A DNA stretch of 49,947 nucleotides, counting the filler, from Jimgerdemannia flammicorona (taxonomy: Eukaryota), in assembly GCA_003990765.1 (NCBI GenBank). It is 2 parts of 2 records of this genome, joined end to end, with 100 filler letters (N's around TTAATTAATTAA, not from the genome) between each part and the next. Parts side by side here need not be neighbours in the genome. Positions count along the whole stretch, not along the records: positions 1 to 24,925 come from RBNJ01000906.1; 1 more part is not named here. One strand, 5' to 3'. The translations under genes and the position numbers were made by a program. The notes under the pieces are model-generated. The model was not told where the DNA came from and ran no database searches. It worked only from the letters and a program-made list of their open reading frames with translations. This document shows, piece by piece, positions 227-44,378 of the stretch (position 1 is its first letter; the number at the start of each line of letters is the position of its first letter).

Positions 227-229
227 GGT

Positions 230-1912: not shown

Positions 1913-1942
1913 AGATTGATTGAAAACAAACCATATTTTATG

Positions 1943-5599: not shown

Positions 5600-5654
5600 T
5601 GGGTGGTGATATTGTATACTTATTCATAGACTGGTAATAAAGATGGAGTCCAAG

Positions 5655-9172: not shown

Positions 9173-9226
9173 AGTATTGTGACTAATATCTTGAGAGATG
9201 TCTTGATAAGGCTAGGTGTAACTTAA

Positions 9227-9238
9227 CTGCTGCTACCA
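9227..9238 (-). promoter_or_regulatory. Primer-binding site (TGGTAGCAG..., initiator tRNA-Met-like)
   Basis: Lies 2 nt inside the 5' LTR end on the minus strand. The same motif is present in A2 and in family B. Confidence 0.75.
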
Positions 9239-9240
9239 AG

Positions 9241-9645
9241 TATAACAGTTCTAGTTTTTAAATGAGGAAGCAACTAGTTCTGGTGGTTCTAAGTAGCTTG
9301 AAGAGATACTTAAGGATTTAAGTATTCTCAAAGGATTTCTGGGAGAAAATATTCTGAGACTTTATTTATGAGAATAAAGGGGATATTTATATAAGATCTA
9401 AAGGAAGGATCTGGAAGGATCTGAGAAATCAAAAGAAAATACCAAGAGGAAAGTTCTTGGCAAAGATGACAAATGATGACAAATAAAGTTCTATAAGTTT
9501 CCAGGATATTCCATGACTAGCTAAATAAGTACTAGTTAATGCTCAGTACCAAGAAGGAGATTTCTAAGTACATGGAAAGTACTGGAAGGTTATAGAATAT
9601 TCAAGAAAGACAGAGAAAAGAAATAAACTACACTAAAGTATTACA
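9241..9645 (-). repeat. 5' LTR of Gypsy A1 (~405 bp)
   Basis: Aligns end to end with 37446-37849 and 43067-43470. Confidence 0.93.
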
Positions 9646-10020
9646 TGTTCTCTTAAAGCTGAGACCATTTAAGCATATATATGTCTGAAATCTTAGTGGA
9701 GTTCAGCATCTTGATTTCAACTTATTGTAAATATATAATATCTAGTAAAAAATTGTTTGAAGAAGTTGAATTAATTTTTTAATAAATTTAGCTTATTGCC
9801 AGAGAGTGGGGTAAGGTGTATCCAGTAAGGTATATTCTATAAAGTATATCCAGCAAATGGACATCTAGCAAACAGGCAATCATACATATCATTTTCCTGC
9901 TCAAGATGCACCTTGCTCTGGATGTATCTTACTGGATACAGATGCACCTTACTGGATATAGATGTACCTTACTGGATGTAGATATGCCTTATCAGACATA
10001 AATGTACCTCGGACATCTCT
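9646..10020 (+). mobile_element. 3' end of a hAT transposon: transposase C-terminal remnant, subterminal repeats and TIR
   Basis: 9646-9714 reads CSLKAETI*AYICLKS*WSSAS*, resembling the end of the hAT dimerisation domain (R.SL..ETI.A..CLKSW). The element ends CGGACATCTCT (reverse complement AGAGATGTCCG, like TAGAGATG hAT TIRs). Confidence 0.7.
9921..10010 (+). repeat. 20-bp subterminal tandem repeat, ~4.5 copies (GATGYACCTTACTGGATRYA)
   Basis: Units start at 9921, 9941, 9961, 9981 and 10001, with inverted copies near 9811-9860. Confidence 0.85.
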
Positions 10021-10095: not shown

Positions 10096-12097
10096 ATGGC
10101 AACCGACAGGCAACCTGAGGTGCATACTGGGCAGGGTGGCCCAAGCACTTTTGACTGGTAGCAGGTGGGGAGGGGTCCAGGCCTGGGGGGAGGTATGAGG
10201 GGCCTACTGGTGGGTGGATATGGAAGGGGTGGAGGAGGTGGTGGAGGATCAGGATCTGGGAGGGCAAGCTTTGCGGAGATGGTGAAGGGGAGACAGCAGG
10301 TGTCAGGGCTGGAGGGCTGGCTGAGAAAGGGCAAGGAGACTGAGAAGGCAACAGTACTGGGGGGTGTGGCCCTTGGAAGGGGGGGCAGTGGAGCTGCAGG
10401 AGTAGTGGCTGGAGGGGGTGTGACTGCTGATGGTATTGGGACTGTCAATCTGGAAAAAAATCCAGATGTGATGGCTGATGGCGAGGCTGAGTGGCTGAGG
10501 CTTAGAAGACAAGGGAACTTGGCAGATGGTGTAATGGGTCTGGCAGTGGCCCCATTACTCAAGAAATTGATTTTGGCATTCGCAGTCACACTGTGCTTCT
10601 GGGGACTGGCGGTGACAGCAAAAATGATACTGGGGCTCATCACTAAGCAGGTAGTGGGTACAGCATCTGTGAAGTTTTTAAAGAGACTGGAAGGAGTGAA
10701 GGTGGGTTTTGAGGAGGCAGCACTGCTGGAGGAGGTGCTGAAGGTTGGATTGGTAGTTGGGGAGGTGTGTGTCTCAATGGCGTGGTGCCTGAAGTGGGAC
10801 CCCAGAGTGGTCCAACTGCTAGTGAAAGGAGTGCCAATGGTGACAGCAGTGGAGACAAGGAAGAGAGTTGAGGATTTCATGGCGGAGTATGGCGAGGTGG
10901 TGGATATTGGGTTCAGGGTCTGGGAAGGGACCTTGCTCAGGACTGATGATGTGGATATGAGGATTCAGCTGGCTGAGAAAGAAGCCACTGAGAAGGCAAG
11001 GGATTGGCCTTCGGTGATGGTCTGAGGAGCGATCCTATGTAAGGTGACAAGGGTGAAGGGGAGTGAGGAGGAGGAGGAGGATTTACTGGAAGCACTAGAA
11101 GAGCTGGGGGGTACTGTGGAGAGGTGAGTGAAGGCTTGGGAGGCTTTTGAAGAGGCAACACACTTGGAGGTGGTGGATGGAAAGCAGATTTGAGTGACCA
11201 AGGAGCAGTGGGAAAGGGCTCAGGGGTGCAAGAGGCAGAAGGAGTTGCTGGCCAAGCTGGATAGCAGACCACTGGGGGAGGCGAGCAAGGTGAAGGGCAC
11301 AGGGGGAGCTGAAGCGAGTGTCTGGGCTGGCGAGGGGGAGGGGAAGGACAAGAAGGAGGCGGAGAAGACTGGGAAGGACCCGTATGCAGGTGGTACACTG
11401 GAGGTATGGGAGGAGGACTGGATGGGCTCTCCTACCCCTACCCCTCTCATCAGGCGAGGCCCAGCTTCCTGGAATAGGGTGGTGGAGGATGTGCCAATGC
11501 GAGGAGCCCAGAGGGTGCAATTTGGAGTTCCAGAGGTGGCATATGGGGGACAGGTGGTAGAGACTGGTGAGGAGGAACTGGTGGATGTCCCAGAAGTTTG
11601 GGATGAGTCTGCGAGTGCTGGTGCTGACACCACAATGTTGGATGGAGGGAGGCCGGTGACTCTGGGGGAGAAAGAGGTGGGGAACTTGCTTTGGATATGC
11701 CGGATGATGAATAACCTGGCGGCGGAAGAGCTGGGGGTGAGTGATGAGTGATGAGCATTGGGTGGGAATACTGCAGGGGGATGGCGTAATGAAGACATTG
11801 AAGGCGGAAATTCTTGTGGTGTACCTGGAGGAGGAAGGGTATGAGGTGGATAAGGAGAGGAAGGAGGAGATGGCAGTCATTGCTGGAGAAAGGGCTGAAT
11901 ACTACTAGAACAAGCAACATAGACTATAGCTCTGGTAGGAAGCATGTATTGAATACCGAGAGGAGTTTGAGGAGAAGGCCGATGGAGAGATGAATGAGCT
12001 GCTGGCTGGATTGGAGGCTCAGAGGGCCAAAGAGGAGGCAGTGACTGCAGAACATAATTTGGACAAGGTGCAGGAGGAGATGAGCATGGAGCAGTAG
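10096..12097 (+). pseudogene. LINE copy 2 ORF1
   Basis: ATG at 10096 is in frame with the 10165-11025 ORF; stops and a small deletion near 11740; ends ...MEQ* as in copy 1. Confidence 0.85.
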
Positions 12098-12130
12098 AGG
12101 CTAATTGACAATATCACATATATCATCAAT

Positions 12131-15100
12131 ATGAACAGTACAACCAAAATTTTCTCTTTAAACATGAATGGGTTACGGGGTGCTTCTCGATGTAGGAACA
12201 TTTTTACTTGGTTGAAGGGATTGGAGGCTGATCTCTTCCTCTTGCAGGATGTCTGGTGCGAAGATGACTCTGATAGGTTGGAATGGACAAAGGAATGGGG
12301 AGGTGTGGCGATTTGGAAGGGCAAGGTTGGAATTTTGGTTAGGAAAGACAGGGGGGAGATACAGAATGTGTGGTGCTGGGGGGAGAGACTGGTCTGGGGA
12401 GAGTGGATTTGGGCAGGCTGGGAGCCAGTTATGGTTGGCTCCTGCTACTGCCCTGCAGTACAGGGTGAGAGGGTAGATTGGGTAAAAGGCTTACAGGAGA
12501 GTGGATTACTTGTGGAGGCTGGGGTGGATGTACTCGGGGGAGATTTCAATATGGTTAGAGATATACTGCTGGATAGGACAGATGGAGGACGAGGTGCTGA
12601 GAAAGGCTAAGTGCACTATTGGATGCTGGAAGGGAGTGTTGGGGGAGTAGAAGGGCCTATACACATTGGGCAGGGGGTCTGGGGACTAGAATTGACTGGA
12701 TATTGACAGCCTGCTGCTGGGGACTGGATGTTTGGAAATCATTGGAGGTGGAATGGTGTCCATGGTCAGATCACTGGGGGCTTTTGGGACAGGGGTACTT
12801 TGGGGGAAGTGGGGATGGGCCTGGACATTGGTGCCTCAATTCCTCTTTGTTAGATGACAAGACCCAGTGGGATGAGTGGGCTAAAGAGATTCAACTGAGG
12901 GTGGAGAACTGGAGGCAGGAAGGGGCCGCAGTTGGGACTCGGTGGATGAGGATGAAGGAAATGGCCAGGATTTACTGGAAGGAGGCTGGCAAGGAGGCAG
13001 GGAAGCAGTGGAAACAAAGAGTGCGCTGGGCCTCTGCTAGATTGATGAGGCTCCTGGAGGAGTGGGCAAGGCTGATGATGTTGGAGGGAGAAGGAGATTG
13101 GAGATTAATGAGGGCGAAAATGGAGGTTGGGGAACTTCAACAGGTGCTGCGGGAGGAGGAAGAGTCAAGGGTACAGGGCTTGGCAGCATGTCTTCGCTGG
13201 CAGGATCTGGAGGAAGGAGAGAGGCCTTCCAAGCTTCTTACAAGGGCCCTTAGAGCAAGGCAGGTTCAGCAATGGTAGGAAGGGGTATTGGACTCTGATG
13301 GTATACTGGTGCATGGTGTACAGGATATTCTTGGATCACTGAAGGAGAGATGGAGTGGATTGTGGAGTGAGGAGGAGGGTGGGGCAGATTCTGCTACAAT
13401 TGAATGAATATTGAAGGATTGGCACCCACCACAAGTTGAAGGGCTAGGGGACCTGATGATGCCAGTACAGGAGGATGAGATCCACTAGGTTCTTGCTGTG
13501 ACAATGTCTGGTACAGCACCTGGGGAGGATGGTCTGCCCTGGGATTTTTGGAAGCAAATGGTTGAAGTCCCAGAGGTGATGGGAGAGATGACAGCATTGT
13601 GTGACCTTATTCTACAGACAGGAAGGTGGGTGGGGGAGCAGGACCTTGGGCTGGTGACACTGCTCTACAAAAACAAAGGAAGGCAGGAGGATTGGAAGAA
13701 CTGGTAGCCGATAATGCTGCTAGATATGGACAGAAAGTTGATAATTAAGGTGGTGGTGGCGAGACTACAGAAGGTGGCCCAGCAAGTTGTGGGTGCTGAG
13801 TAGAGGGGATTTGTGGGTGGTTGGCTCATCAGAGATGGCACTGCCTGGGTGCATGGCATTATCGAAGGGGTGAGGGCCTGTGGACTGGATGGGCATCTAG
13901 TTTTCTTAGACCAGAAGAAGGCATATAACTGGGTGCAAAGAGTCTGGCTGGAGAAAGTTTTGGATAGAATGGGGGTACTGCATCAATTCTAGTCAGCAAT
14001 GGTCAGCCTACTAGAAGGGAGTAGGGCTGCACTCATGTGTAATGGACATAGAGGGGTAGTATTCCCCTTGGGAAGGGGGGTGCCCCAGGGGGATCCATTG
14101 TCCCCCATTTTGTATGCTCTTTCCCTGGAACCACTTATGTACCGAATTAGGCGGAGGATAGTGGGGATCTCTGTCTTTGGCATAGGATGGAAGGTTGGGG
14201 CCTTTGCTGACAACATGGTGGTGGGTTTGGATTTGATTGCTGATGTTGAGGAGCTCAAGAGGACTGTGGAGTGATATGAGAAGCATTCTGGAGCTAAGCT
14301 GAATTGGCATAAGTGTGAGATGATGGTGCTCGGTAACAGCCTGGTGGGAGGGGAAGTTATAGGAACAATTGTCCCCACTGGCAAAGTAGTGCAGTACTTA
14401 GGTATCTACTTGTCAGTCTATGGGTCAGTTCTGCCCAAGCTTTGGTGGGAGCAGAGGATTGGAATCTGGGAGGAGGCTCTGCGGAGTTGGGGGGGAAGAC
14501 ATTTTTCTCTGACAGGGCGGGTCTCAATTTTAAATGTCTACTGGCTGCCAAAGTTGTGGTACCTGGTGTATCATCTGGACTTCCCAGCCTGAGTAGTGAA
14601 GAGATTGATGAAGTCAGCGAAGGGATAGATTTGGGCTGGCAGGTAGAGTCAAATTAGTTGGGAGACCTTGTCCCTACCAGTGGCAAGAGGTGGTCTTGGG
14701 CTGGTGGACTTCCCAAAATGGTTACACTGCTTGAGAGCATGGTGGCTGAAGAGGGCGGTGGAGTTGAGAGAAGGTGGATGGGTTCCTCTGTTACAGAAGT
14801 TATAGGAGAGGTGGACATCGCCGAGGGGCTCAACTAGTGATCTCCTCTCCTTGGTTGGGCTTCAGAACACTGCCCAACTATGATATAAAGGATTTTGGTG
14901 GGAAATTGCAGAAGGAGTACACCGCATTGGTATCCGTTGGCAGGGGAATGAAGGTGAGGAGGATTGGGACCTGGTGATGTGGAGATGGGATCATATACTG
15001 CTGGGTGGTACTCCTTTAGCTGAGTTCGACATTGGTGATGGAATGGAATGTCAAAGGGGACCAGGCCAGGATCTGTGGCCTAGCGGTTGGCAAGGAGTTG

Positions 15101-15750
15101 GAATTGGCGAAGAGTGGAACTGGCATGGTGTTTGGACCTGGAGTACTGCAGTGAGAGCATGGCTGCCACCAAAGTACTGGGTGGTCTGGTGGCGCATGCT
15201 GTGGAGGAATGTTATGCTCAATTTTCGCTCAGGGCACCTTGTTGTAGGGGGTTGCTTCGACTGTGAGGAGTGCCATAATGTAGGGCAGGAGGGGGGTTAC
15301 GTATAGACACCAGAATATTGGCTAGGAGAGTGTGAGATGTTGGGGGATTTTTGGCAGACAATTGGGGATTGCTTAGGGGTATGGGGTAGGAGTGATGAAG
15401 TATGGGGGCAATGGGAGGACTTGAGGGATAGATTGGTAGGAGGGATAGAGAAGGAGTGGATTACTTTAGATTGGGCTTTGGTAATTTGGGTAGGGCTGGC
15501 CAGTCATTGGCTATTTGTTTTTGAGGATGGGAGGAGACAGAGCTTGGGGGACTGGCTGCTGCGATGGCATAGGCTTATGGAAGACACCTTAACAGGCTGG
15601 TGGCTGGGTTGGGGGATGCAGGGTGGTTGGAGGCACTGCTTGGTGGAGAAAATCTGTGGGCAAAGTGGGGGGAGAGTGGGGGTAGTTAGTGAAAGAGTGA
15701 TTTTCATTTGTGAGGAAGTAGGGAGGAGCCCCCCTGTGGGGATTGGATAG
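12131..15750 (+). pseudogene. LINE copy 2 ORF2 (APE-RT-CCHC)
   Basis: MNSTT start, GGDFN, SDH, QGDPLSP, FADN (decayed FADD) and CEEC; many stops and a deletion near 12605. Confidence 0.92.
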
Positions 15751-15808
15751 TGGGTCGGAATGATGTATATTTATTCATAGACTGGTAATAAAGACAGAGT
15801 CCAAGTGA

Positions 15809-15845
<37 letters not shown>

Positions 15846-18916: not shown

Positions 18917-19563
18917 TAATACTCCCAAATAAATAAAATCAATTTGAATTGAATTGAATTGAGGGTCATTTGAATCAAATTAAATTCAAATCAAATTGAA
19001 TTGAGGGTCTGATTCAAACCTTATTTTTTAAAATATAATAACTCAATAGTGCCACATTAAGTCTCCATCTGCTTCCACCACTACTGGCTGCCTGGAATCT
19101 CCCACATACCTCCACACCCCAGTGATCTGACCAGAGACACCACCGTACCTCTGATAAATCTAAAATATTACCCCAGTGTTCTGCTACTAGGATCCAGTCA
19201 ATCCTCGTCCCAACCAAATTCTCACCGATTGGATGCCAAATGAAAACAGGTCTAAATTTAACAATTATTAGCTTATTAGATTCCCCTTATATAAGGAAAT
19301 CTAACAAGCTCAAGATCATTAAATATGGATATATTTTTGTTGAGTTATTACATTTTGAAAAATTGGGTTTAAATTGAATTTCAAATTGATTTGGATCTTT
19401 GATTTGATTCAAATTGAATTAAATGAGACCTTTGATTTGATTTGAATCAAATCAAATTGGACCTTTGATTTAATTTGAATTGAATTGAATTGGATTTTTG
19501 ATTTGATTGAATTGAATTAAATTTGGGTCAAATTTAATTCAATTCAATTCATAAAGAGTACTA
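18917..19563. mobile_element. hAT-type non-autonomous element (647 bp) with decayed 8-bp TSD
   Basis: Termini TAATACTC...GAGTACTA. Flanks TATATAAT (18909-18916) and CATATGAT (19564-19571) differ by two transitions. GAATT/ATTTG subterminal repeats. Removing it restores the Copia frame. Confidence 0.85.
19045..19217 (-). pseudogene. Internal fragment of a divergent LINE APE endonuclease inside the MITE
   Basis: GTRIDWIL...WCLWSDHWG...WRLNVALL. Confidence 0.85.
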
Positions 19564-20128
19564 CATATGATAAGAAGTAGCTTGGTGAAAGAATTGCTAG
19601 CATATATATATCTGAAGAATAGCTTTTATAAGGTATGTATAGAAAACAAAGCTTTCTAGTAACCATTCTAAAAATAATTAAAGTATACCTTTGGGATCCT
19701 TAATCTAGTCCATACAGATATATCTGGTCTGATACATACTCTGTCACATTCCAGCAAGCGATATTTTCTAATATTTATCAATAATTATATATACAAGGTG
19801 TATGTATATTTTCTATCAGCAAAGAGCAAATGTAAGTGTATAATCTCTAAGCCACTGAAATCACACATCACATTCCAAACAAGCCACTGAAATGATATGT
19901 GAGCTCTGAATTAATCTGGAAATTATCTGCAAGATCATGAAGCTGAGTCAACCTGAAGTTACAGTATACAAAGCTGAGTCAACTTGAAGTCACAGAACAT
20001 AAGAATTACACAAATAAAATCTTATCAATCAGAACCAAATACATGTATACTGAGTACTGAGATACATCAAAACAGAGAACTACAACAAACTAAACAAACA
20101 ACCCCAACTTCTGAATACATATACAAAC

Positions 20129-21400
20129 ATGACTACTGAAATCTACAACTACATCCAAACTGATATTTGGAATGCCATTATCAACTGAGCCACACCCCCT
20201 CTGCCCCTCATGAATATCTATAGCTTAGCACCTCTCTACTTTGTAAAAGCCCAATGGAATGCCCTGAACATACTTAGCAAGGTCTATGAAATCAGACAAA
20301 TCTCAAGCTACTATTTGATCAGCTGCCTCCTAGAAGACATGGTTGAGCACCACCATGATAAAGATATTACCCAGATGTCTCAATACCAGAAACTCATTGC
20401 TTGCAAATACTGAGAACTCTTTTATAAGTATAGTACCTTTATTCCCTGCCTCTAAGTTACTACCAGTAAAATGATTGCCACTCTATCCTATAGCCAAATC
20501 AATAATATAATATAAGAACTCAATCACAAATATATTGAGTATGTTCAGACCATAGACAGAACCTTCCTATACCCTGATGACTATATTCTGCAGATATACT
20601 AAGTCAGATATGCTATGAAAGACATCTACAATATAATTCAATTTGATATAGATGATGTAGAAGATAATGATCCCTCTGATGTCAACATGACCCCAAGCCA
20701 TGGATTACTGCCAACCCTGATCACCCTGCCAATACTACCAATGAACTTACAACAGTTCATAACCACCTATGAGACTTATTGAGATAATGATCACTGGTAT
20801 GAATATCAACCCACATTTATTCCTAATTACTTCAACTATAATAAAGAAACCAGAGAATACAATCTCTATCTCCAAACAACTCTTGAGATAGAACCAACAA
20901 CTTCACTACTAGAGTACAAGTAATATGAAGCATAACTACCAGTATACTACAACCTTGTAACTTATAGTGCTACAACTTATAGAAGATATGCAGACAGCAA
21001 ATCAGATGAAGGTGAAGATAATATACTCTTCTTTTGTCCACCAACACCTTATCCAGCATACAAGACAGATGATGCTATTTTGTGGAACAGAGATAAAATC
21101 TCCATATATTACTATCTCAGTGAACAGGGAGAAGTAATCTACAAATAACTCTTTCTAGACAACTACTTTATCAGAGATAATTTCATCAAAAACTACCCAG
21201 ATAGCATCTGAATCTATAGATAGCCTAGCAGTCATATTATTGTTAGATTGGTCTTATATGATATAACTGTAAACAGACTCAGCAGGCAGACAATCTCTTG
21301 ATATATCAGATCACACTTATACTATATGACTGTATTTCAACTCAGCAAGGCACTAAGAGCTACATCTATATCTAGCCTAGTTCAGATAGCCTCCCACTAG
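20129..21400 (+). pseudogene. Decayed ORF of unknown function (~423 codons) inside the Gypsy B LTR (U3)
   Basis: One frame from ATG 20129 to TAG 21398-21400, read without invoking a frameshift. It has 12 internal stops, comparable to the decay of the element's own gag. Confidence 0.6.
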
Positions 21401-21408
21401 TATAAATA
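21401..21408 (+). promoter_or_regulatory. LTR TATA box of Gypsy B
   Basis: TATAAATACCCCCT matches the context TATAAATATCCCCT in the family A LTRs (minus strand). Confidence 0.6.
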
Positions 21409-21886
21409 CCCCCTCTCCCAGACCTCAGAAACTCAGACTCAAATATACAAGAATATTCTGAACACTTCTCTACAGTATCCCTTCACAACTACTGCTAGTA
21501 TAGCAATATTATGAATAGCAAATAAACCTATTTAATAATCCACAAACCACTCTTAAGTAATTCCACCCCACATTAGATCCCACTCCTAACCTCATTACAA
21601 AATCTCCTAATTGGGTATTGTCTGCATGATATGCCAATTCAACTAAACTGGTCTTAGTTTCTTAAACTTCCTGAAATATGGAAAATCCTGAACATCCAGA
21701 ACTAGTCCAAAAAAGGACTTTGATTGAGATGTCAACCTGATCTTGAAATTGATAAGTGTGGAGAATATACTCTATATGAAATTAATCTTGACCTTAATAA
21801 AATGGTCTTCCAGAATATCCAGAACTTCTAGAAAACTCTTCCAGAACTACATAGTGGTTACTCTAACAAGTAACCCTCTTACAACT

Positions 21887-21896
21887 TGGTAGCAGT
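21887..21896 (+). promoter_or_regulatory. Primer-binding site of Gypsy B (TGGTAGCAGT)
   Basis: Follows ...CTTACA-ACT and shares its core with the family A PBS. Confidence 0.75.
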
Positions 21897-23867
21897 AATT
21901 TACAATCCAATTCTGCTTTAAGACACTTTCTCATCCCACTATAAATCCCTCTGAAAATTCCTATAAGTTGGTATAAAGCCCAATCTCTGAACTGAAAATT
22001 ATCCTGAACTATCTGACAATTTGGAGAGAATTGAACCTGAAGTATAAGGACAATTGGACTTCCACACCTGCAACAAGTGGGACAAACTTTATTCAAAGAA
22101 AGAAGTACTCCAAATAAATCAGCAGATAGGCAAAACCCTATTCACTGAACTCCTTGCACTATACTCAGTAAGTTAAGATAAAGAAGGTCTTATAGAAGCC
22201 CTCTTTACTCTTCTCAACAAGGGTTTTGTCAGCTCTACAAATCCAAGTAATCTAGGACAACCAGTAGTAGTCTTTCTAGTCTTAGTTTCTCATGAAGCCT
22301 AAGCCTCTATAGCCAAGTGGCTCAACTCTACCAACTTTCACTATACTAGAACCAAGACTGCATTATACTACTGATTCCAGAACAGCAAGGCCTGCTATAT
22401 TTTTAAGGAAGAAGCAGGCCCTGCTACAGCTCTATCTGACCATGAAACTAATACTGAACCAGAACTTGACTTGGAATTAAGTCCATCTGAAATTATATAT
22501 ACAACTGATTCTGTCTATTTTGATACTGAGCAAACCCAACTACATAGAGACCAAACCAAAGAGGAGGAGGAGTATCTTAGTGAATTTGATCCCAAATATA
22601 CCACTAAAGGAGATGCATATCCATTAGGATAGAATACAACTATATAGCAACAGACAGCTATCTATCGAGCCCTTACTCCAGGCCCACAACTACTACTCCA
22701 GAAACTTATATAGACTCAAGGAACACCATTATATTCTGCACCAGTACCTCATATAGTACCAGGAACACCTCTACTAGTAGTCCAACTGCCTCCAATAGAC
22801 AATATAGCAAACTAACAGATTCTAGACCTCACAGAACAGATAGCCATAATGATAGCAACCATTACTTCCTTAGCTGAACAGACCTGACCAACCAAAAATC
22901 TGAGCCTACTTACCTTCAATAGTACTGCACAAGAAGTTCAAAGCTTCATTAGTATAGTTGATACTAACTTCAAAGCCAATCAATGGACCAATGAGTGAGT
23001 TGCTGACTGCCTTCTAATAAACAATTAAGACCAACTCTAGAACAACTCTTTGCTACTACTATGGCCTATGTCTGTTGAGTTGATATATTCTTCAAAGGAC
23101 CCACTGAAGAATAGTGATGAACTCTTCTAGAAAAACCGCTCACATGGTACACCAGATCTGTAGTAATTACTCAGAATATAGCAAACAATGCCCTAGGATA
23201 TAGAGCCCATCCTGTAGCCACTGGACTCAAACAACTCATGATTGCTCAATACTGCAATAAAACCATGATTGCTGAATCTTGAGTCAAACTTTGTAATCTT
23301 AAATTTGATATATATGGCAAGGAGGAATTCAAAACCTTTTGTACCAAACTTGAGTCACTTCTGAACACTATTGGCCTAGGATATATTGCCAATGATGAAG
23401 TAAAAAATAGTATAAGAGGGGACTACCTATTTAATATATTATCCAAATGGCTTACAAGAAAAATTCAAGAACAAAGATGCCCAGTTGGTTGTAACTACTA
23501 ACAATGGTGCCTGGCAAGAATCAAGACTATAGTTAAGTGAATTCTAACAGCTGGACCAATTCTGCCATGAAGACAATTCAACAACAAGAAAAAGACTTAG
23601 ATCAAGAAAGATAAACCCAATTATGAAGCATCTCGAGCTCTCTCTACATCTACCTTATGGATACCTAGAAATCCTGAATCTACCCAGCCAAGTACCTTCA
23701 AGAATCTTACTGAAGGAGAAAGAAATGAACTTTGAAGAAGTGGAGCATACTTCTATTGCTAAAAGACAGGACACATAGCCAGTGCCTGCCCTAACTGAAA
23801 ACCCCAAACAGTAATATAAGCAAATATTACCACTCTGCACCACCTCAACAATCTGACCACTAAGATA

Positions 23868-24273
23868 TTGGACTTTGTTAAGATAAGACAAACTGCCAAG
23901 GTCCAAACCAAAGGCAGTCAAAAGGCAGCTGGATATGACCTATATGTAGCCAAAGAAGCTACAGTCTCCAACTGAGAAGTCAAGCAAGTCTACATAGGAA
24001 TCAGCATCCAAATCCCAGAAGGATATATTGGATGAATATACTGCTACAGTAGCCTAGCACTGAAAAGACTCTCAGTAGAAGGAGGAGTCATTGACAAAGA
24101 TTATACAGGCGAAATTACTGTCCTCATCCGGAATTATAGTTGGATATCCTTTAAGATCCCCATTGGTTTCTGTATCATATAGATCCTATTCAAGAAAATC
24201 AAATCAACTCTGACAATCAAGAAAGTCCCTGAACTACTACTCACCATCCAAGGATCCAAAGGATTTAGCTTAT
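23868..24273 (+). pseudogene. dut: dUTPase domain of Gypsy B
   Basis: Motifs AAGYDL, G*IYCYSSLA, GGVIDKDYTGEI and QGSKGF, in frame with the zinc knuckle. Confidence 0.88.
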
Positions 24274-24925
24274 CAAACAAGACCCCAGCCCAACCTATCA
24301 GAAACAAAGAAGAACAATTCTATAAGAAAATTGAAGATGGATATATACTAAGTGGCTGATGTCTCTATGGTAAAGGAATGTATTCTTCTCAAATAATTGA
24401 GGATTGCTTCTCTTGTGTCAATGAACTGGCTCAAAGAAGAGCCAATAGTAGGAAAGCTCCTACAACTGAAATCACTACCATTGGATCAAACAAACTACTT
24501 ATACATCAATTGAGCATCTGTCAAGATTATGATAGACAGTGGTGCCTTGGACAACTTCATCAATGAAGAGATAGCCAACAGACTCAAGGTCTTCACCTCA
24601 CCAGTACAACAAACTCAAGCAGTTGTCACAGCTGATGGAGTCTCTCATGTCATTAGCAAGAAAGTCTGCAACCTGCCCTTCCAAATTGGTGACTACTGAG
24701 TATATATTACTCTCTAGATTGTATCACTTCCTGACAATGAAATCATCCTTGGAACCCCATGGTTAAAATAAGAGAACCCTATGATTGATTGGGTAAACTA
24801 TTCTCTGACCATCAAGAAAGGATGCCATAACTTCAAACTGTAAGGCAAAAAGGACCCACTCAGTTTCAGTAACTCTGGACTAAAGATCACTGACATCTTT
24901 TTTTTTTTTTTTTTTTTTTTTTTTT

Positions 24926-25025
24926 NNNNNNNNNNNNNNNNNNNNNNNNNNNNNNNNNNNNNNNNNNNNTTAATTAATTAANNNNNNNNNNNNNNNNNNN
25001 NNNNNNNNNNNNNNNNNNNNNNNNN
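24926..25025. other. Assembly gap with artificial TTAATTAATTAA linker (24970-24981)
   Basis: 100-nt N block containing a six-frame stop linker. Confidence 0.97.
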
Positions 25026-28000
25026 AAGACCACTTTGTCAAACACTATCTCCACCTGCCCACTGCTCTGGCTACAGATCCCTTCCACCAGTCAGCAATGT
25101 TGCCCACCCTGGGGACCCCAACCAACCCACCACCCAGTAAGGAGATCCCCCACCAACTCCTCCCACCTCACCAACTTCTCTGGCATCCCTATCCAGCACC
25201 CTTCCTTAAAAACAAATAGCTAATGTCCAGCCAACCCTACCCACACTGCAATAACCCACCCTACCATGAGCCACCCATTGCCAACACCTCCCACTAGTCT
25301 AGATTTAAAATCCTCCCAGTGACCTCTCTCTCCATCTGGCCTTCTTTCTATACCTAGCTGGTCCCCTATAGCTATCCAAAAGTCTCCCAAAACCTCGTAC
25401 TCTCCCAACCAATGTTCTGGCATCTGCACAAAACCCCCAGCCTACCCTACATTATAGCACTCCTCACAATCCAATTGGCCTCCATCTACCAGATGCCAAG
25501 CATGAAAATTTTACATAATATTCCTCCACAGTATTCACCACTATACTACCCAGAACTTAGAGGGAAGCCACCGCCGCACCTCAGTACTCCAGACCCAGAT
25601 TCCTGTCCAGTCCCACTCCTCGCCAATTCCTACTGTCTGCCAACTACTCAGCTAAAGATCCTGGCCAAGTCCCCGCTGACACTCAACTCCATCACTAATA
25701 ACAAACTCAGTAAGTGGGACCCCCCCTAGCAACAGTCTGTCCCATTGCCACATAGCAGGGCCCCACACCACCTCCCCTTTATTATCCTGCCAGCACAGGC
25801 CTATCTGGTGTACCCCTTCCACTACCCCCCACCAAAAGCCCTTGTACCATAGCCACCAACTTCTATTTAGACCCACCAGAGAGAGCAAGTCTCCTGAGGA
25901 CCCCCAGGGTGAGAATCTCATCTCCCACACCTTCTGCATCAGCAGTACCCATCCTCCGCCTTGTAGTTCAGCAGCTCTTTTCAACCACCAAGCTTGCAGG
26001 CAGTGTAGCTATCTAGGAAAGTCCACAAGACCTAGGCCTCCCCTAATCACTAGCTCTACAAGAGTATTCCAACTAATCTGAGATCTTCTTCCTGTCTAAA
26101 TCTAATCCCAAGCCAGCTTCATCAGCCTCTTCACCACCCAGGCTAGAAAGTCCAAGTGATATGCCACATACTATAGCTTGGGGAACCAGTACACATTCAG
26201 TATTGCCACCCGCCCTGCCAGAGAGATGTGGTGACCCCCCCAACCTCTCAGAGCCTCTCCCCAAATGACCACCCTTCTCTCTCACCACACTCATGGCAAG
26301 ACTGATCCATATACAGAAAGGAAGATACCAAGATACCACACCACCTCTCCTGTGGGGACAATTGTTCCAATAATGTCCCCTCCTACCAATCCATTCCCCA
26401 ACACCAATGTCTCACACTTATACCAGTTGAGTTTCACCCCAGAGTATGCCTCATACCATTCCACTGTTTCTGTAAGTGCCTTGACATCTGCCACCAATCC
26501 AAGACCAACTACCATATCATCTGCAAAAGCCCCCACCTTCCACACTACACTGTACACAGAAAGCCTGGCCACCCTCCAATGGATCCTATCTATCAAAGGT
26601 TCCAAAGAAAGGGCATAAAGTATAGGGGACAGTGGGTCTTCTTGAGGAACACCTCTCCCCAAGGGAAATGCCAAACCCCTGTGACTATTATACATCAGCA
26701 CCGCTCTACTATCCTCTATCAAACTCAACATAGAGGCTCAAAACCATGGTGGGATACCAATTCTGTCCAGAACCTTGCCCAGCCATACCCACCAAACACA
26801 GTCATAGGCCTTCTCCTGGTCCAAAAAGACCAGTCTACCATCCAGCCCACAGGCCCAAGCCCCTTCAATAATGCCATGCACCCAGGCAGTCCTATCTCTG
26901 ATAAGTCTCTCTCTCACAAAACCCCACTGCTCCTCACCCAGCACCTGTTGAGCAACCTTCTGCAGCCTTGCAACAATCACTTTAGTCACCAACTTCTGGT
27001 CCATATCCAAAAGCATGATCAGCCTTCAATTCTTCCAGTCCTCTCACCTGCTCTTATCTTTGTACAATAAGGCCACCAACCCCAAGTCCTGCTCTCCAAC
27101 CCACTTGCCATTTAGAAGAACATGGTCACAGAGGACAGCCATCTCTCCTAACACTCCAGGGACCTTTGCCATCTTCTTCCAGAAGTTCCAAGATAACCTG
27201 TCCTCCCCTGGCACTGTCCTAAGCTTTATTGCTGCAAGGACCCTCTTGATCTCCTCCTCTTGGACTGGCAGGATCAAGTCACCCAGGCCCTCTACCTGTG
27301 GTGGCTCCCACTCCTCCAGTGTGTCCCCAATTGCCTCTTCATCAGCACCCCCTTCTTCTTCACTTCACAGACCCTGCCATCACTCCTTCAAGACCCCCAA
27401 GATCTGTTGCATGCTATGCACCATATCTCCCTCAGCATCAAAGACCCCCTCTCACTGTTGTCACACCCTCCTAGCTTTGAGGAGCCTAGACAAGTACCTA
27501 GTAGGCCTCTCTCCCTCCTCAAGCCCCTGCCACCATAGCCTGGCAGCCATCCCTCACATATGAGTCTCCTCCTCCTCTCTCAACACCTGTTGTAGTTTTA
27601 CTACCTCCAATCTCGCCTGCTTGAACCTCCAATCCTCCACCTCATCAGAAACAAGCAAATCAGCCCATTCCAACTGCAATCTCATCAGCCTATTGGAAGC
27701 ATACCATATGTGCTTCCTCCTCTGTCTCCCAGCCTCCCTACCAGCTCCTCTCTAAAAGATCTATACCGCCTCTTTCAACCTCATCCAACAGACACTCACA
27801 GACAGACCCTCATGCCTCCAGATAAGAACCTTCACCTGGATGTCTGCTACCCATAAGTCCCACAACCCCTTCTCAGCCAGCAGGGAGGAGTTAAGGCACC
27901 AATGTCCAGGTCCATCTCTACTCTCCCCAAACTGCCCCTGCCCTAACAGTCCCCAGTGATCAGACCACAGGCACCACACCATCTCTAAAGTCTTCCAGAT

Positions 28001-28791
28001 ATCAGCACCCCAGCATTCGGCTGCCAAAATCCAGTCAATCCTCATGCCTAACCCATTCACTCAATGGATGTAGACCCTGGCATTGCCCCACCGTGTTCTT
28101 CTCATATCTCCAAAGGAGCTTAGGTTCTCCACCTCCTCCCATGCTTCCAGACCACCACTCCTCCCACCTGCATTCCTCCCTCCATCAGTTCTATCCAGTC
28201 ATGGATCTTGAACTATATCAAAATCACCCCCAAGAACATCAACTCCTTCCTCCAAGAGAATACCCTCCTCCATCAGCTCCTTAATCCACACAATCCTCTC
28301 ACCCCTAACTGCAGGGCAGTAGCAGGAGCCCACTCTTACTGATTCCCACCCTGGTCAATGCCATTCTCCTCAGACCAAGCGATCACCCCAGCTCCTAATT
28401 CTCACCAAGTTTCCTCTATCCTTCTTTACCAGAATCGCTACTTTGCCAAACTAAGCAGTAGCTCCACCCCATTCCCTAGTCCACTCCACCTGATCATCCT
28501 CATCCTCACACTGTACATCCTATAGTAAAAAGGATCAGCCTCCAATCTCTTAAGCCAAGCAAAAATGTTCTTATGCTGCCCAGATCTCTGTAGCTCATTC
28601 ACATTCAGAGAGAAAATATTAGTTGTACTGTTCATAGAAAATACTGTTATTTATCAATCACATCCCTACAAATCTACATTCAAGTCCTCCTGTGCTAAGT
28701 CCAAGTCACATTTAGCAGCCAGTTCCCTCTTCTCAGCTTCCTGTGCCTCCAACCCCCCCAGAAGTTCAACCATTGCCCCATCCTCTTTCTC

Positions 28792-31700
28792 TTTTTATTT
28801 TTTTTATAGTCACTTGGACTCTTCCTTTATTACACCCATCTATCACATATAAGTACAGTGAACCCACCCCCTATCTAATCCCCCTAGGGGGGCCCCTCCC
28901 CCCTACCCCTTCTCGATAAAACACCACTCTATCAAATACAATCCCCACCCTCCCACCACTCTGTTCACACATCCTCACCACCAAACCTCATCATTGCCCT
29001 CCTGAAAGACCCCAACCTATCCACCATCCAGTCATCAGATCCCCCAACAGCTCCTCCCACCTTAAAACCTTCTCCTGTAGACTCATCTGTCGCCCCTCCT
29101 CAAACACAAATCACCAATGTCCTGCCAATCCCACCCAAACTACTAATACCCACCCGATAGTGAGCCAACTATCACCCACTCCCCCCACTAGCCAAGATCT
29201 CAAATCCTCCCAGCAATTCCCCTCATCCACCAGCCTGTGCCCCACACCCAGTCTATTCCCTATTTCAACCCAAAAGTCCCCCAAAACCTCACACTCTCCT
29301 AGCCAATATTCCAGCATCTGTACCAAACCCCCAGCTTGCCCTACATTGTAACACTCCTCACAATCAAAACAGCCACCATCCACCAGATGCCCGGTGTGGA
29401 AATTCAGCATGACATTCCTCCGCAGCATTCACCACCACACCACCCAAAACTTGGGGGGAAGCCACTGCCATACCTCAGCACTCCAAGACCAGATACCTGC
29501 CCAGTCCCACTCCTTGCTGATCCTGACCGCCTGCCAACCCAAAGATCCTGGCCAAGACCCTGCTGACACTCCACTCCATCCCCAATATCAAAAGTAGTAA
29601 GTGGAGTACCCCCCAGTAGCAGTCTATTCCATCACCATATACTAGGTTCCCACAACACCTCCCCCTCATTGCCCTGCCAGTGCAGACCAATTCTGTGCAC
29701 TCCATTGACCACTCCCCACCAAAAGTCCTTAAACCACAGCCTCTGAATTCCATTAAGCCCTACCAAAGAGAGTAGATTGCCTGAGAACCCTCAGGGGGAG
29801 GTTCTCATCTCCCACACCTTCTGCAGCAGAGGCACCCAACCCCCTCCATGCAGTTCAGCTGCTCTCTTCAACCACCAGGCTCGCAAGCAGCACAACCTCT
29901 TAGAGAAATCCACAAGGCCAAGACCTCCCCTGACCACTGGTGTTACAAGAGTATCCCAACTGATCTGGGACCTCCTCCCTGCCCAAATCCAATCCCTAGC
30001 CACCTTTGTCAGCCTCTTCACCACCCAAGCTGGGAAGTCTAGGTAGTAGGCCACATACCACAGCTTAGGGAACTAGTATATATTCAGAATTGATACCTGC
30101 CCTGCTAGAGAGATATGGCAGCCTCTCCAACCTTGAAGGGCCTCTCCCCAAACCACCACCCTGCTCTCCTACCAAACTTGTGGCAAGATAGAGCCATACA
30201 CAGAGAGAAAGATGCCCAGATACCATACCACTGCACCAGTAGGAATAATTGTTCCAATGACGTCCCCACCCACTAGCCCATTCCCGAGCACTATAGTCTC
30301 ACACTTATGCCAGTTGAGCTTTGCCCCAGAGTGATCCTCATACCATTCTACCATCTCCTTAAGTGCCTTGACATCTGCCACAGACCCAAGGCCAACCACT
30401 ATATTATCTACAAAGGCTCCCACCTTCCACACTATGCCATAGATAGAGAGCCCTACCACCTTCTGGCGAATCCTATCCATCAATGATTCCAATGAGAGGG
30501 CATAAAGAATAGGGGACAGGGGGTCCCCCTGAGGAACCCCTCTTTTCAAGGTAAATACCAGACCACAGTAACTATTACACATCAGCACCACCTGACTGCC
30601 CTCTAGCAGATTCAATATAGAAGCCTGAAAACCTGGAGGAACACCAATACGATCCAACACCTTGCCCAGCCAAACCCACCAGACCTGGTCATAGGCCTTC
30701 TCCTGGTCCAAGAAGACCAACCTTCTATCCAGGCCACAAGCCCGGGCCCCTTCAATGATACCATCACCCATGCAGTCCCATCTCTTATAAGTCTGCCTCC
30801 AACAAAGCCCCGCTGCTCCTCCCCCAGCACATGTTGGGCAATCTTCTGCAGCCTTGCAACAACCACCTTAGTCACCATCTTCCTATCTATGTCCAAAAGT
30901 ATGATCAGTTGCCAGTTCTTCCAGTCTTCTCTCCTCCCCTTGTCTTTGTACAATAAAGCCACCAGCCCGAGGTCCTGCTCTCCAACCCACTCACTACTCT
31001 GAAGAACATGATCACAGAGAGCAGTCATTTCACCCAAAATGCTGGGGACCTTAACCATCTTCTTCCAGAAGTCCTATGGTAGTTCATCCTCTCCTGGTGC
31101 TGTTCCAGTTTTAGTTGCCACAAGGACACTCTGGACCTCCTCACCTCACACTGGCAAGGCCAAGTCATCCAGTCCAGCCACTTGTGGCAGCCTCCATTCC
31201 CCTAATATATCTTCAATAGCTGCCTCATCAGCACCCCCTTCTTCCTTACTCCACAAACCCTACCATCTCTCTTTCAAAACCCCTAAGATTTGTTGTATGC
31301 CGTGTACCATTTCCCCATCAGCATCTAGGACTCCATCCCACCAATGTCTCACCCTCCTAGCTTTGAGCAGATGGGATAAATATCTAGTAGGCCACTCACC
31401 CTCTTCAAGCCCCTGCCACCTTAGCCTAGTAGCCATACCCCGCATATGCATCTCCTCCTCTTCCCTCAACACCTGTTGTAATTCCATAATCTCCAATTTA
31501 ATCCATGCTAACCTCCAATCCTCCACCCCATCAGAAGTAAGTAAACCTGCCCAATCTATTTGCAATCTCCTCAGCCTATTGGAAGCATACCTTGTGCGCT
31601 TCCTCCTCTGTCTCCCAGCTTCTCTCCCAGCCCCTCCCCAATAGACCCTCATAGTCTCTTTCAATCTCATCCAACAGACACCCACTGACAAACCCTCACA

Positions 31701-34626: not shown

Positions 34627-36640
34627 CCCCATTCTCTTTCTCCTCAAAGTTCTCATGATACTCCAAACAGGCCTCCTGCCAGAGCTACAAACCATGATGC
34701 TCTGCCCAACAGTAGGCAGCTCACTCATCAGCAATCACTACCAGCTCTGCCTTTCTCACCTTATCAACCTCATATCTCTCCTTCTCTAGGAAAATATCCA
34801 GAATCTCTGCCTTCAGCACCTCCACCACCCCATCTCCTCACAGAATCCATACCCAATACTCCTCGGGCATCACACACAGATCAACCTCCCCCAACTCCTC
34901 AGCCACAAGATTATCCATCACCTTGCTCATCCACAGCAGATTCCCCACCTTCTTTCCTCCCAGAGTCCCTGGCTGCCCTGCATCCAGCATCATAGTATCT
35001 GCTCCTATACTGGCAGTCTCATCCCACTCCTCCTCTGGGACATCCACCAGCTCATCCTCACCAACAGCCACTATCTGGCCCCCTTTCACCACATCTGGGA
35101 CCCCAAAGTGAACTCACTGTGCCCCCTGCATCAGCATATCCTCTACTGCCCCTCTCTTCCCCACCGGGTCCCTCTTAATAAGTGGGGGTGGGGTGCTATC
35201 CAACTCCTGCTCCCAAACTTCGAATGTATCATCAGCATAGGGGTCCTTGCCCAGCATCTTCCCAGCCCCTTCCTTGTTCACCTCCACCTCCTCTTCTCCT
35301 TTACTAGCCCAGATGCTGGCTTCAACACCTCCAGACTCCTCAGCCCCATCCAACTTCTTCTTCACCCCTCCTTTCATACTCGCTAAAAACTCCCTCTGTC
35401 TCTTGTACCCCTGTGCTCACTTCCACTGCCTCTTGTCAGTGCGGATATACTTTCCCTCCACAATCTCCAAGTGTGTTGACTCTTCATACTTCTTCCAGGC
35501 CTTTGCCCTCCTCTTGACAGTCTCACTCATCTCTTCTAGAGCCTCCAGTAGATTCTTCTCCTCCTCCTCACTCTCTTTCACCCTTGACACTCAACAACTG
35601 AAAGCCCCCCATAGTATCACCACTGGCCAGTCACTCAACTTCCCCATAGCCTCCTTCCCTGCCAGTCAAATCCTGATGTCAATATCCCCAGTTCTGATGG
35701 TGGTTCTCTCCCAAATCTGGAAATCAATATCCACCACATCTCCATACTCAGCCATCACCTCCTCAACCCTCCTCCTCATCTTGACTGCTGTCACCATAGG
35801 CACCCCCTTCACCAGCAGCTACACCACTCTGGGGTCCCACCTTAGGCAGTACACCATAGGGACCACCACCTCTCCAACCACCACTCCAGCCTTCATTGCC
35901 TCATCTAGCATGCCTGCCTCCTCAAAACCCACCTCAATCCCCTCCAGCCCCTTCAGAAACTTCACTGAGATAGCTCCTGCCACTTGCTTTGAGATAAGCT
36001 CTAGGACCATCCTTGCTGTCACTGTTAAGCCCCAGAAGCATAGAGTGGCCGCAAACTCTGAGATTGATTTCTTGAGTAATAGAGCCACCGCCAGCCCTGT
36101 CACACCATCAGCCAGGTCCCCCTTTCTTTTTGGGCCCATCTGTCCAGTCCCCACATCAATAGTTACATCTGGATTTTTTTTCAGATTCTCCATCATGCCA
36201 CCATCAGCAGTTCCACCACTACCCCCAGCCACTACTCCACTTCTGCTACCTCCTTCCAGTGAAGGCCCAGCCCCCCCAGCATTCTCAACCTTCTGCTTCC
36301 CCTTCCCTCCGGTCTGTCCACTGCGAGCTCCTATTGGCCAACCTCCAGTCCTCAGCATGTCCACAAAGCTCCTTCCCTGCTGCCCTCCAGCCCCCCCACT
36401 AGTGCCGCCTCCACTGCCCAAGCCACCCTGCCCACTTGAGCCACCAAAAGACCCCATCCCAAGTCCATATCCTCTCCTGACATGTTGCCAGTCAAAGGCC
36501 CCAGATCTGCCTGACCTAGTATGCATGTTGGCTCGCTTGCTGGTTGATATTATCTTAGTACCTTTCTCCAATAAACGACTTGAAAGTGTGTTGTAAAATG
36601 TGTATAACATGAATTGTAGAAGAGAAAGGTCACCTGTATC

Positions 36641-37445
36641 TGATCTGGATGCTGGTATATATTGATGATATACTAATTTATAGCAAAATAGTAGAGTTAC
36701 ACTACACCCACCTCAGACAGATACTGATCCTTCTGTAAGAACACCAGCTCTATGCCAAGATAAGTAAGTATAAGTTCTATTAAGACCAGATCAAGTACCT
36801 AGGACATATCATCTCTGCTGAAGGTATCAATGTAGACCCCTGAAAAGTATCAGCTCTTAAGGATATTTCCATCCTCACTACCCTTAAGCTACTTCAGTAC
36901 TTTCTGGATATTGCTAGTTACTACCAAAGATTCATCCAAGAATACCCTACTTTTGCAGCCTCACTGACCAGCCTGGCCCATAAAGAAGTGAACATCAAGA
37001 CTGAATAGGCCCCCAAGTGTACCCAGACTATAGACTATCTCAAAAGACTCCTTACTGAAGCCCTAGTGCTAATTGCACCTGACCCTACCAGACTATTTAC
37101 CCTGATCATAGATGCTTCTGATATTGCCATTGAGGTAGTACTTAGTCAAGAAGATCACTCAGTGGCCTATCTTTCTCAAAAGTTCAAGCCAGCTGAGACC
37201 TGATATACTATCCATGAGAAGGAGCTCCTGACCATTATCACTGTACTCCAGAAATAGTACTATTTCCTCCTAGGACAACTATTTGTAGCCTATACTAATT
37301 ATCATACTCTGCAATATATTCACATACAGTTCATACTAACTTATAGACAAGTCTGCTAGATGGAAATCATTACCAATTTTGGAATGAAAATCAAGTATAT
37401 CTCAGGCAAAACCAACCATATGACTGATGGTTTCTCCAGATATAT
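36641..37445 (+). mobile_element. Gypsy B segment 2: C-terminal half of RT and RNase H (decayed)
   Basis: LVYIDDILIYS, YLGHIISAEGINVDP, IDASDIA, HEKELL and DGFSR. Same strand and domain order as segment 1; the N-terminal half of RT is missing. Confidence 0.85.
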
Positions 37446-43470: not shown

Positions 43471-44299
43471 TATATAAAAAGATAAACTTGTCTTCATAGT
43501 CAAGATAATTAGAGATCTTACTGAGATGATGAAGAATAGCTACCAACAGGACAGTCTCCTGGTGAAATTCCTTCAATTCTGCCAAGATCCAGAGGCCAAG
43601 GTCCTAGAATTCATGAGGCAAATATCCAAAAGATTTACTTACTATAATAGACTTATCTATAGAGACCATGACAGAGTGGTTATATCTAACAATAATACTC
43701 TGCAGCTCAAGATCATGCAGGAACTCTATGACACTCCTGCAGTAGGACACTTTGGCTTTGAGAAGACCTACAATCTCCTCTCAAGAGAGTTCTACTGACC
43801 AAAGATGACCAAGGATATCAAAGATTTTATAGCCTCATGTGAGATATACCAAAGGTTCAAAAGTAGTAACAAACTACCTGCAGGACTTCTGCAACCCCTG
43901 CCTATTCCAAGTCACAACTAGAATCAGATTGCAATGGACTTTATTATCTAGCTCTCCAAGACCAAAGCAGGATGAGACACTATTGTAGTATTTGTAGACC
44001 ACCTAAGCAAATAAGCCTATTTTGCATCTACCAAGACCACTGCTACAATACCAGAGATTGCTGAGATCTTCCTCAACCAAGTATTCAAGCTATATAATAT
44101 ATTAAGTACCATTATATCTGACCAGGATGTGAAGTTTACAAGTAACTTCTGGAAGGCATTCTTCTCCCTCCATAGAACCAAGCTGAAGTTCTCTACTGCC
44201 TACTACTTCCAGACTGATGGTCAGACTAAGTAAACCAATAGAATCCTCAAGTAGATACTTAGTATCTTCTGCTGTTACAAGTAGAATAATTGGGACCCC
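43471..44299 (+). mobile_element. Gypsy B segment 3: integrase zinc-binding and core domains (cut by LINE copy 6)
   Basis: GHFGFEKTY, SCEIYQ, GLLQPLPIP, IAMDFI, VFVDHLSK, IISDQD, QTDGQT and NNWD. Confidence 0.88.
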
Positions 44300-44378
44300 T
44301 TTTCACCGGTAACATTCAGGTGACACAAGATTTGGACAACACTTTCTGCGAAGTTTTTGGTGAAAAGCTACTATCAAC

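Follow-up and report, generated by a model that had tools for sequence, protein, structure and literature searches.

A predicted 2-kb long terminal repeat of a Ty3/Gypsy element in Jimgerdemannia flammicorona and the decayed reading frame in its U3 region

We analyzed a 49,947-nt stretch of DNA from Jimgerdemannia flammicorona (GCA_003990765.1), referred to here as the window. It consists of parts of 2 records placed end to end with 100 filler letters between them; positions 1 to 24,925 come from RBNJ01000906.1, and parts that lie side by side need not be neighbors in the genome. The subject of this report is an old retrotransposon of the Ty3/Gypsy type in this window, called family B, and in particular the segment at 19831-21883, which is very probably a long terminal repeat (LTR) of that element. 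Between the start of the segment and its predicted promoter lies a decayed open reading frame (ORF) in sense orientation, which two open homologues identify as a genuine coding sequence, now dead. On balance, we favor the reading that family B has a 2,053-bp LTR with a 360-codon accessory ORF in its unique 3′ (U3) region. A second Ty3/Gypsy element in the window, the related chromovirus family A, served as a reference.

Results

The predicted landmarks of the LTR and of the ORF within it are as follows.

19826..19830, strand not given: GCAAA, predicted target-site duplication of 5 bp, the last bases of an interrupted Copia-type integrase
19831..21883, + strand: predicted 5′ LTR (Gypsy family B; 2,053 bp), whose termini, TGTAAG...CTTACA, were read from the sequence
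19940..20001, + strand: two tandem 31-nt copies (84% alike; repeat family D2) in U3, 5′ of the ORF
20129..21211, + strand: decayed putative accessory ORF, 360 codons plus the TGA at 21209-21211, with 9 internal stops; supported by homologues
21212..21400, + strand: U3 segment from the ORF stop to the TATA box, corresponding to codons 361-423 of a longer frame
21401..21408, + strand: TATAAATA with TATAAA, the sole TATAAA in the 2,053-bp LTR; putative promoter
21521..21526, + strand: AATAAA, candidate polyadenylation signal (end of R), ~115 nt 3′ of the TATA box
21887..21900, + strand: primer-binding site (PBS) TGGTAGCAGTAATT, starting 3 nt past the LTR end

Open homologues of the reading frame

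The frame starts with the ATG at 20129 and runs to a TAG at 21398-21400 that adjoins TATAAATA, a length of 423 codons. We translated it with its stops as X and searched 5.8 billion proteins. P0002, an open protein of 247 aa, matched codons 115-360 with 138 of 251 positions identical (55%; E 1e-85) and was the sole match among 1170 candidates. P0003 (128 aa) matched codons 1-128 with 95 of 128 positions identical (74%; E 8e-69), the sole match among 84 candidates from shorter proteins, and it has the start MTTEIYN in common with the window ORF. Only these two proteins were found, in a search that for the N-terminal part covered forms of up to 741 aa. When the two were compared with the window by tblastn, P0003 matched only at 20129-20512 and P0002 only at 20471-21208. 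In protein-guided scans, 0/244 pattern-matched stretches were confirmed in metagenome, 0/124 in genome, and 0/137 in viral sequences, and a degenerate DNA pattern gave 0 matches in three collections.

P0002 terminates exactly at the position of the window TGA at 21209-21211. Codons 361-423 of the longer frame have no homologue and contain 3 stops in 63 codons. Because P0002 stops at codon 360 and the tail is without a relative, we take 20129-21211 as the supported ORF, which ends ~190 bp upstream of the TATA box and 676 bp before the PBS. A coding frame that runs on to the TAG at 21398 was rejected, as homologue support ends with codon 360. The first-pass annotation of this DNA had carried the ORF to the TAG beside the TATA box; the frame does reach that TAG, but the part supported as coding is the shorter one. 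Its proposal that the frame is real coding sequence is borne out by the two open relatives, and we conclude from these alignments that 20129-21211 is a genuine coding sequence that has since died.

The differences between the window copy and its relatives are largely those expected of decay in place. The alignments cover 356 codons, of which 227 encode an unchanged residue. At 64 codons C>T or G>A in the window copy explains the difference, at 15 the opposite change does, and a further 41 fit neither. Of 9 window stops that fall within the alignments, 8 are compatible with the same decay. Decay-compatible columns make up 28 of the 33 that differ from P0003 and 50 of the 104 that differ from P0002, compared with maxima of 15 and 19, respectively, in 1000 shuffles. 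Codons 1-360 have a stop density of 0.025, and that of the pol domains of family B is 0.024 (dUTPase), 0.037 (protease), 0.029 (reverse transcriptase [RT]-RNase H), and 0.029 (integrase). Since the two match, the ORF was as intact as pol when this copy inserted and has decayed where it lies; a similarity to the decay of the element's gag had been pointed out before.

The predicted protein gave few clues to its origin. P0002 has a net charge of -36 over its 247 residues, with 18.6% D+E, 14.6% aromatic residues, 9.7% Pro, and no Cys. The highest 19-residue hydropathy was 0.97-1.28, and no stretch of the membrane-spanning type was present. Pfam contained no family for P0002 at E<=10, and P0001 gave only a chance-level match to RAMP (16.5 bits versus a cut-off of 27). 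Sequence searches of the PDB returned 0 matches at E<=1. The ESM Atlas yielded no usable neighbor; its own model had a predicted local distance difference test (pLDDT) value of 0.39, and its best structural match had a template modeling (TM) score of 0.30. Models made with AlphaFold reached a pLDDT of 30.2 for P0002 and 45.1 for P0003, the latter with six helices at low confidence, and both were too poor for fold comparison. By these searches the ORF protein is an orphan, in line with the earlier failure to recognize a domain in it, and as predicted it is neither env-like nor like Sag of mouse mammary tumor virus (MMTV). It probably comprises a near-neutral, helical N-terminal part followed by a long, disordered tail that is acidic and rich in aromatic residues and proline. 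Such a tail would suit a protein of the activation-domain type. From its composition, our best single guess at a function is that the protein regulated how the element was transcribed or silenced, although the guess is unlikely to be right.

The homologues also bear on whether the ORF served the element. It could instead have been a passenger: coding sequence, either captured or of recent origin, that travelled in the U3 of a single subfamily, did nothing for the element, and was open because the copies were young. We consider this unlikely, but the orphan protein with no family and no confident fold would fit it, as would the fact that there are only two relatives, both fragmentary, and that family A does with a 404-bp LTR without such an ORF. 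Against a passenger, there was no host-gene relative in 5.8 billion proteins or, for codons 115-360, in 1.84 billion representatives. Moreover, the window ORF and P0002 are unlike at 54 of 242 aligned codons beyond what C>T/G>A decay of the window ORF accounts for, and yet the 247 codons of P0002 are open; the start codon is common to P0003 and the window ORF; and long invariant blocks are interleaved with variable ones. The open frame despite non-decay differences, together with the invariant blocks, speaks for selection across subfamilies, i.e., for an accessory function.

The segment at 19831-21883 as a probable LTR

Family B starts with TGTAAG (19831-19836), and the inverse of this motif, CTTACA (21878-21883), is followed by ACT and then, from 21887, by TGGTAGCAG..., where the PBS TGGTAGCAGTAATT begins. 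The PBS would match initiator tRNA-Met; a tRNA scan of the window found 0 tRNA genes. TG...CA ends with a PBS just inside are those of a Ty3/Gypsy LTR. The left end is set independently of the right one, by the break in a Copia-type integrase upstream, whose core start (...LVHTDISG...RYFLIFINNY...YFLSAKSK, read by eye) stops at 19830. The inverted match of the left end to the right end is 6/6, for which the chance is ~2e-4 at a fixed place. GCAAA is given as a predicted duplication because its partner copy would fall beyond the window; the duplication of family A is also 5 bp.

The ORF sits between the LTR start and the sole TATAAA at 21401. In the interval from the ORF stop to the TATA box (21212..21400), two 32-nt copies occur at 21253-21284 and 21316-21347 (75% alike). 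The 31-nt tandem copies 5′ of the ORF may act as an enhancer or as a promoter of the ORF. Because three further AATAAA occur in LTR B, at 20013, 20840, and 21796, the one at 21521 is our putative choice of polyadenylation signal. Tandem Repeats Finder reported nothing notable in LTR B, and Rfam gave 0 matches over 19000-25000. The CpG observed/expected ratio in LTR B is 0.0.

The coordinates that the first-pass annotation gave for the termini, the frame, and the TATA junction all proved exact, and the landmarks of a long LTR that it described are present and match those of family A, whose LTR pair is verified. Its statement that the Copia integrase is cut at 19830 agrees with our reading by eye; Pfam returned only a sub-threshold Pol_BBD match for the Copia remnant (24.4 bits versus a cut-off of 27) and no rve match.

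As the window holds no second copy of LTR B, a test on its own LTR pair was impossible, and we used the pair of family A as a substitute. Family A occurs as a complete copy (37446-43471, minus strand), inserted in family B between RNase H and integrase, and as a partial copy (5655-9646) that is 90% alike. It is near intact, with gag, CCHC, dUTPase, protease, RT, RNase H, integrase, an SH3-like domain, and a chromodomain in one frame, and its Pfam matches include Retrotrans_gag, Ty3_capsid, and Chromo (E 3.7e-10). Self-comparison confirmed an LTR pair of about 404-405 bp, 92.6% alike, where 404 bp had been proposed. A polypurine tract, AAGGAGGGGGAGA, precedes the 3′ LTR, and the element is flanked by a 5-bp duplication (ATATA on its strand). 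The best named relatives of its pol are from plants and green algae. At <=50% identity to these best database relatives, family A would form a separate lineage.

Identity between the two families is 40-48% across protease, RT, and integrase, and the order gag-CCHC-dUTPase-protease is the same in both. The family A LTR starts with TGTAAC and ends with TTACA, and its PBS, TGGTAGCAGTGGTT, lies 2 nt after the 5′ LTR; it differs from the family B PBS, TGGTAGCAGTAATT, at two positions, both G>A in B. Compared by eye, the LTRs have the TATA context GTATAAATAYCCCCTYT in common, which in both reads GTATAAATA(Y)CCCCT(Y)T. A verified family A LTR with like ends, TATA context, and PBS supports the LTR call for family B. 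The distance between LTR start and TATA box is ~260 bp for family A and 1,570 bp for family B, which suggests that the extra length of LTR B is U3 (~1.3 kb longer) and that this extra U3 contains the ORF. An alignment of LTR B with LTR A by MAFFT was convincing only for the U5 end and the PBS, and blastn and tblastx of B against A found no significant match in the LTR or the ORF part.

It is improbable that the ORF lies outside the LTR, i.e., that the real LTR is a short one and that the ORF part is either internal sequence moved by rearrangement, such as the 5′ or 3′ extra ORFs of plant Tekay, Athila, or Retand elements, or a separate insertion. With the 3′ LTR beyond the window and the related family A LTR only 404 bp long, such an arrangement would agree with the internal position that available passages of published work describe for extra Ty3/Gypsy ORFs (PMC7264820, PMC3485330, PMC11728184). 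It would leave the independently fixed left end at 19831, with its 6/6 match, to be explained otherwise. We considered two shorter LTRs and rejected both: at the left end, the sole TGG between 19831 and the ATG (at 19917) has no PBS-like match, and near 21370 there is no TG start with a matching inverted end. Neither is there a polypurine run of >=10 in 19701-22000. A separate insertion with its own termini and duplication, which the first-pass annotation had named as an alternative, was looked for around the ORF part, and no flanking termini or duplication were found. The composition, CpG loss, and stop density of the ORF part are the same as those of the remainder of family B.

Stop counts in the frame

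The 423-codon frame contains 12 internal stops (5 TGA, 6 TAA, and 1 TAG), as had been counted before, and the remaining five frames over the same span contain 19-45. Markov shuffles of order 1 had a mean of 33.4 stops, with 0/2000 at <=12; shuffles of order 2 had a mean of 28.9, with 1/2000 at <=12. As the stop count is far below that of the shuffles, the frame is not a product of chance. The earlier estimate of about half the expected number needs correcting: with 29-33 stops expected, the observed number is ~40%. G occurs at frequencies of 0.19, 0.11, and 0.10 at the first, second, and third codon positions. The notion of a chance frame, with a low stop count arising from base composition and no gene behind it, is refuted: the region is indeed rich in A and C and poor in G, which lowers TGA and TAG in some frames, but shuffles that preserve di- and trinucleotides almost never get down to 12 stops, and two independent open proteins match the frame.

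The remainder of family B and its surroundings

Family B lies in the window in three collinear pieces on the + strand, once an array of long interspersed nuclear elements (LINEs) and family A are removed: 19831-24897, ~36640-37445, and 43472-44300. Downstream of the PBS, the following predicted features were found.

22400..23800, + strand: gag remnant, with a capsid-like block near 22906 and a CCHC knuckle at 23748-23792; identified by eye
23895..24272, + strand: dUTPase domain (PF00692, E 5.6e-23), between the nucleocapsid knuckle and the protease
24499..24819, + strand: aspartic protease (RVP_2, E 2.5e-7; gag-asp_proteas, E 4e-8)
36640..37445, + strand: end of RT (YIDD) and RNase H (RT_RNaseH_2, E 2.1e-22; RVT_1, E 2.6e-7); domains at 36640-37362
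43472..44300, + strand: integrase zinc-binding domain and core (Integrase_H2C2, E 1.8e-18; rve, E 0.001, which is below the curated cut-off); domains at 43691-44203

The domain order of protease, RT, RNase H, and integrase is that of Ty3/Gypsy (Metaviridae). For gag, there was no Pfam match at E<=0.01, and no env was found in the parts of family B present in the window. Family B is best explained as an old Ty3/Gypsy element, depleted of CpG by decay, from a chromovirus-like group whose members carry a dUTPase.

The element is interrupted several times. On the 3′ side of the protease it is cut by a T-run, N-runs, and the inverted LINE array; the stretch at 24898-25026 consists of the T-run and then two N runs with TTAATTAATTAA between them, a gap or masked stretch. 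The N-terminal two thirds of RT is missing between 24820 and 36640. The second piece is cut by the family A insertion after RNase H, and a LINE interrupts the integrase near 44300, ahead of the position of any C-terminal chromodomain.

LINE copies occupy 228-5660, 10390-15830, 25026-36232 (inverted), and 44300-49947. They are 66-79% alike, some of them in tandem, and encode an endonuclease and an RT, with an open 879-aa ORF at 46189-48828. Their G+C content is ~53%, and their coding strand has 39-40% G and 15% C, a GC skew of 0.4-0.5. The nearest clusters to the LINE in the ESM Atlas are labelled Chordata. The CpG observed/expected ratio is 0.0-0.11 in the LTR elements (18300-44300) versus 0.35-0.50 in the LINEs, and its near absence from the LTR elements suggests that the older elements were heavily methylated at CpG and decayed. 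In the Copia pol remnant, just 5′ of the integrase core, there is a 33-bp tandem repeat (19384-19523; 4.3 copies, 79% matches).

Contigs from sequencing runs

Two sequencing runs matched the window, with shares of 0.06 and 0.05, and the run search gave no RNA data set. Contigs over the ORF part came from runs of two studies and were 80-99% alike. They were short (151-265 nt), and none spans an LTR end. Two joints, each seen in one contig, skip 242 nt at 20101-20344 and 93 nt at 21318-21412. The contigs have C where the window has T at 223 and 230 places and G where the window has A at 116 and 118 places; differences in the opposite directions occur at 112/143 and 70/106 places.

Summed contig depth was 966-1942 (X1) over 21370-21900; the ORF part had 40-584 and the internal part 233-597. 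The depth over 21370-21900 is three to four times that of the ORF part and the internal region, but summed contig depth cannot rank the parts of the locus. If the difference is real, many relatives may have the R-U5 part in common but another U3.

Discussion

Our analysis points, with somewhat better than even confidence, to a Ty3/Gypsy element whose long LTR held a sense accessory ORF in U3. A gene in this position would come after integrase on the genomic RNA, at its 3′ end. For its expression it would need a subgenomic (spliced) RNA or a separate promoter within the first 300 bp of the LTR, and its transcript would end at the LTR poly(A) site, for which 21521 is the candidate. With the 31-nt copies in the 298 bp 5′ of the ATG and a poly(A) signal 3′ of the ORF, a transcript contained within the LTR is conceivable. 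Reverse transcription would copy the U3 gene to both ends of the element, and recombination between LTRs would leave it behind in solo LTRs. The product would be an accessory protein of the element, acting in trans. As for the origin of this arrangement, we can only speculate that the site of plus-strand priming moved, so that what had been a 3′ ORF became part of U3.

Several points weigh against this reading. Family B leaves the window inside a LINE, so that its 3′ LTR is beyond the window, and duplication of the ORF there is inferred. Even at low stringency, self-comparison of the window revealed no second copy of LTR B. Both its TATA box and its poly(A) signal are predictions from sequence alone. 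The ORF has just 2 relatives among 5.8 billion proteins, and a HMMER search of 1.84 billion representatives, with a profile covering codons 115-360, returned P0002 alone. No full-length open copy of the ORF was found. P0003 stops at codon 128, and the window copy has a stop at codon 129; the end of P0003 is therefore either the end of a contig or a break already present in the source copy of the family. The position of the ORF between LTR ends is known from the window copy alone; the contigs that P0002 and P0003 come from are 998 and 1180 nt long, respectively. Finally, because no family and no fold were found, any function is a guess.

ORFs that lie in U3 or overlap it are a retroviral feature: sag of MMTV is in U3, and nef and foamy-virus bel/bet overlap it. 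The family B ORF would resemble sag, nef, and bel in being a sense ORF of a few hundred codons, in the U3 of a long LTR, that is duplicated with the LTR. Sag, however, is a membrane glycoprotein, and the window ORF protein has no sequence or family match to it and no membrane-spanning stretch. Unlike the retroviruses with U3 genes, the carrier here is a chromovirus-like Ty3/Gypsy element with no env in the parts present. It is possible, if doubtful, that family B belongs to a chromovirus-like lineage with a U3 gene under selection, doubled at each reverse transcription, so that the LTR was a self-contained gene whose product acted in trans on transcription or silencing, a counterpart of MMTV sag.

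A second likeness to retroviruses concerns dUTPase, which adjoins the protease in betaretroviruses. In families A and B, dUTPase is found between the nucleocapsid knuckle and the protease, which is the betaretrovirus-like position and not the one between protease and RT. Available passages report dUTPase in Gypsy elements of basidiomycetes, rotifers, and planarians (PMC2864245, PMC5408684, PMC6431247), at the position between protease and RT in fungi, rotifers, and planarians (PMC6431247). In PosPlaTy3-3, a basidiomycete Gypsy element with a chromodomain, dUTPase is described at the amino-terminus of Pol (PMC2864245). Families A and B are similar to PosPlaTy3-3 in having dUTPase within gag-pol at the Pol N-terminus, and family A also in its chromodomain. 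The passages on dUTPase available from these three sources mention no LTR ORF.

The closest description of a comparable ORF that we encountered is from plant Tekay elements. As far as the available passages go, extra ORFs of Ty3/Gypsy elements are reviewed as internal, up- or downstream of gag-pol (PMC7264820), which agrees with the first-pass annotation. Passages from two other sources describe ORF0 of Retrosat2, an element with LTRs over 3.2 kb, and the 5′aORF of sunflower Tekay 13-2, whose product of ~400 aa is mostly disordered and proline-rich (PMC3485330, PMC11728184). On these accounts, the elements with extra ORFs (ORF0 of rice Retrosat2/RIRE3/RIRE8 and the sunflower 5′aORF) share with family B a chromovirus lineage (a probable one for family B), long LTRs, and a sense ORF of ~400 aa upstream of gag. 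Their products are likewise orphan and fast evolving, a likeness to the window ORF drawn by description only. The Tekay ORFs are placed between the 5′ LTR and gag-pol in these passages, whereas the family B ORF is upstream of the PBS, in the predicted LTR. In the literature that we searched, which was not exhaustive and did not take in subscription journals, there was no ORF within a retrotransposon LTR, and 'LTR-encoded' was used in retroviral or unrelated senses.

Extra ORFs of LTR retrotransposons are common and poorly understood. The window contributes a further lineage, in which dUTPase precedes the protease, as well as an orphan protein family. If the U3 ORF is conserved, each solo LTR or LTR-derived promoter could carry a coding unit, variation in LTR length could mirror gene gain, and the layout of sag, nef, and bel would not be confined to retroviruses.

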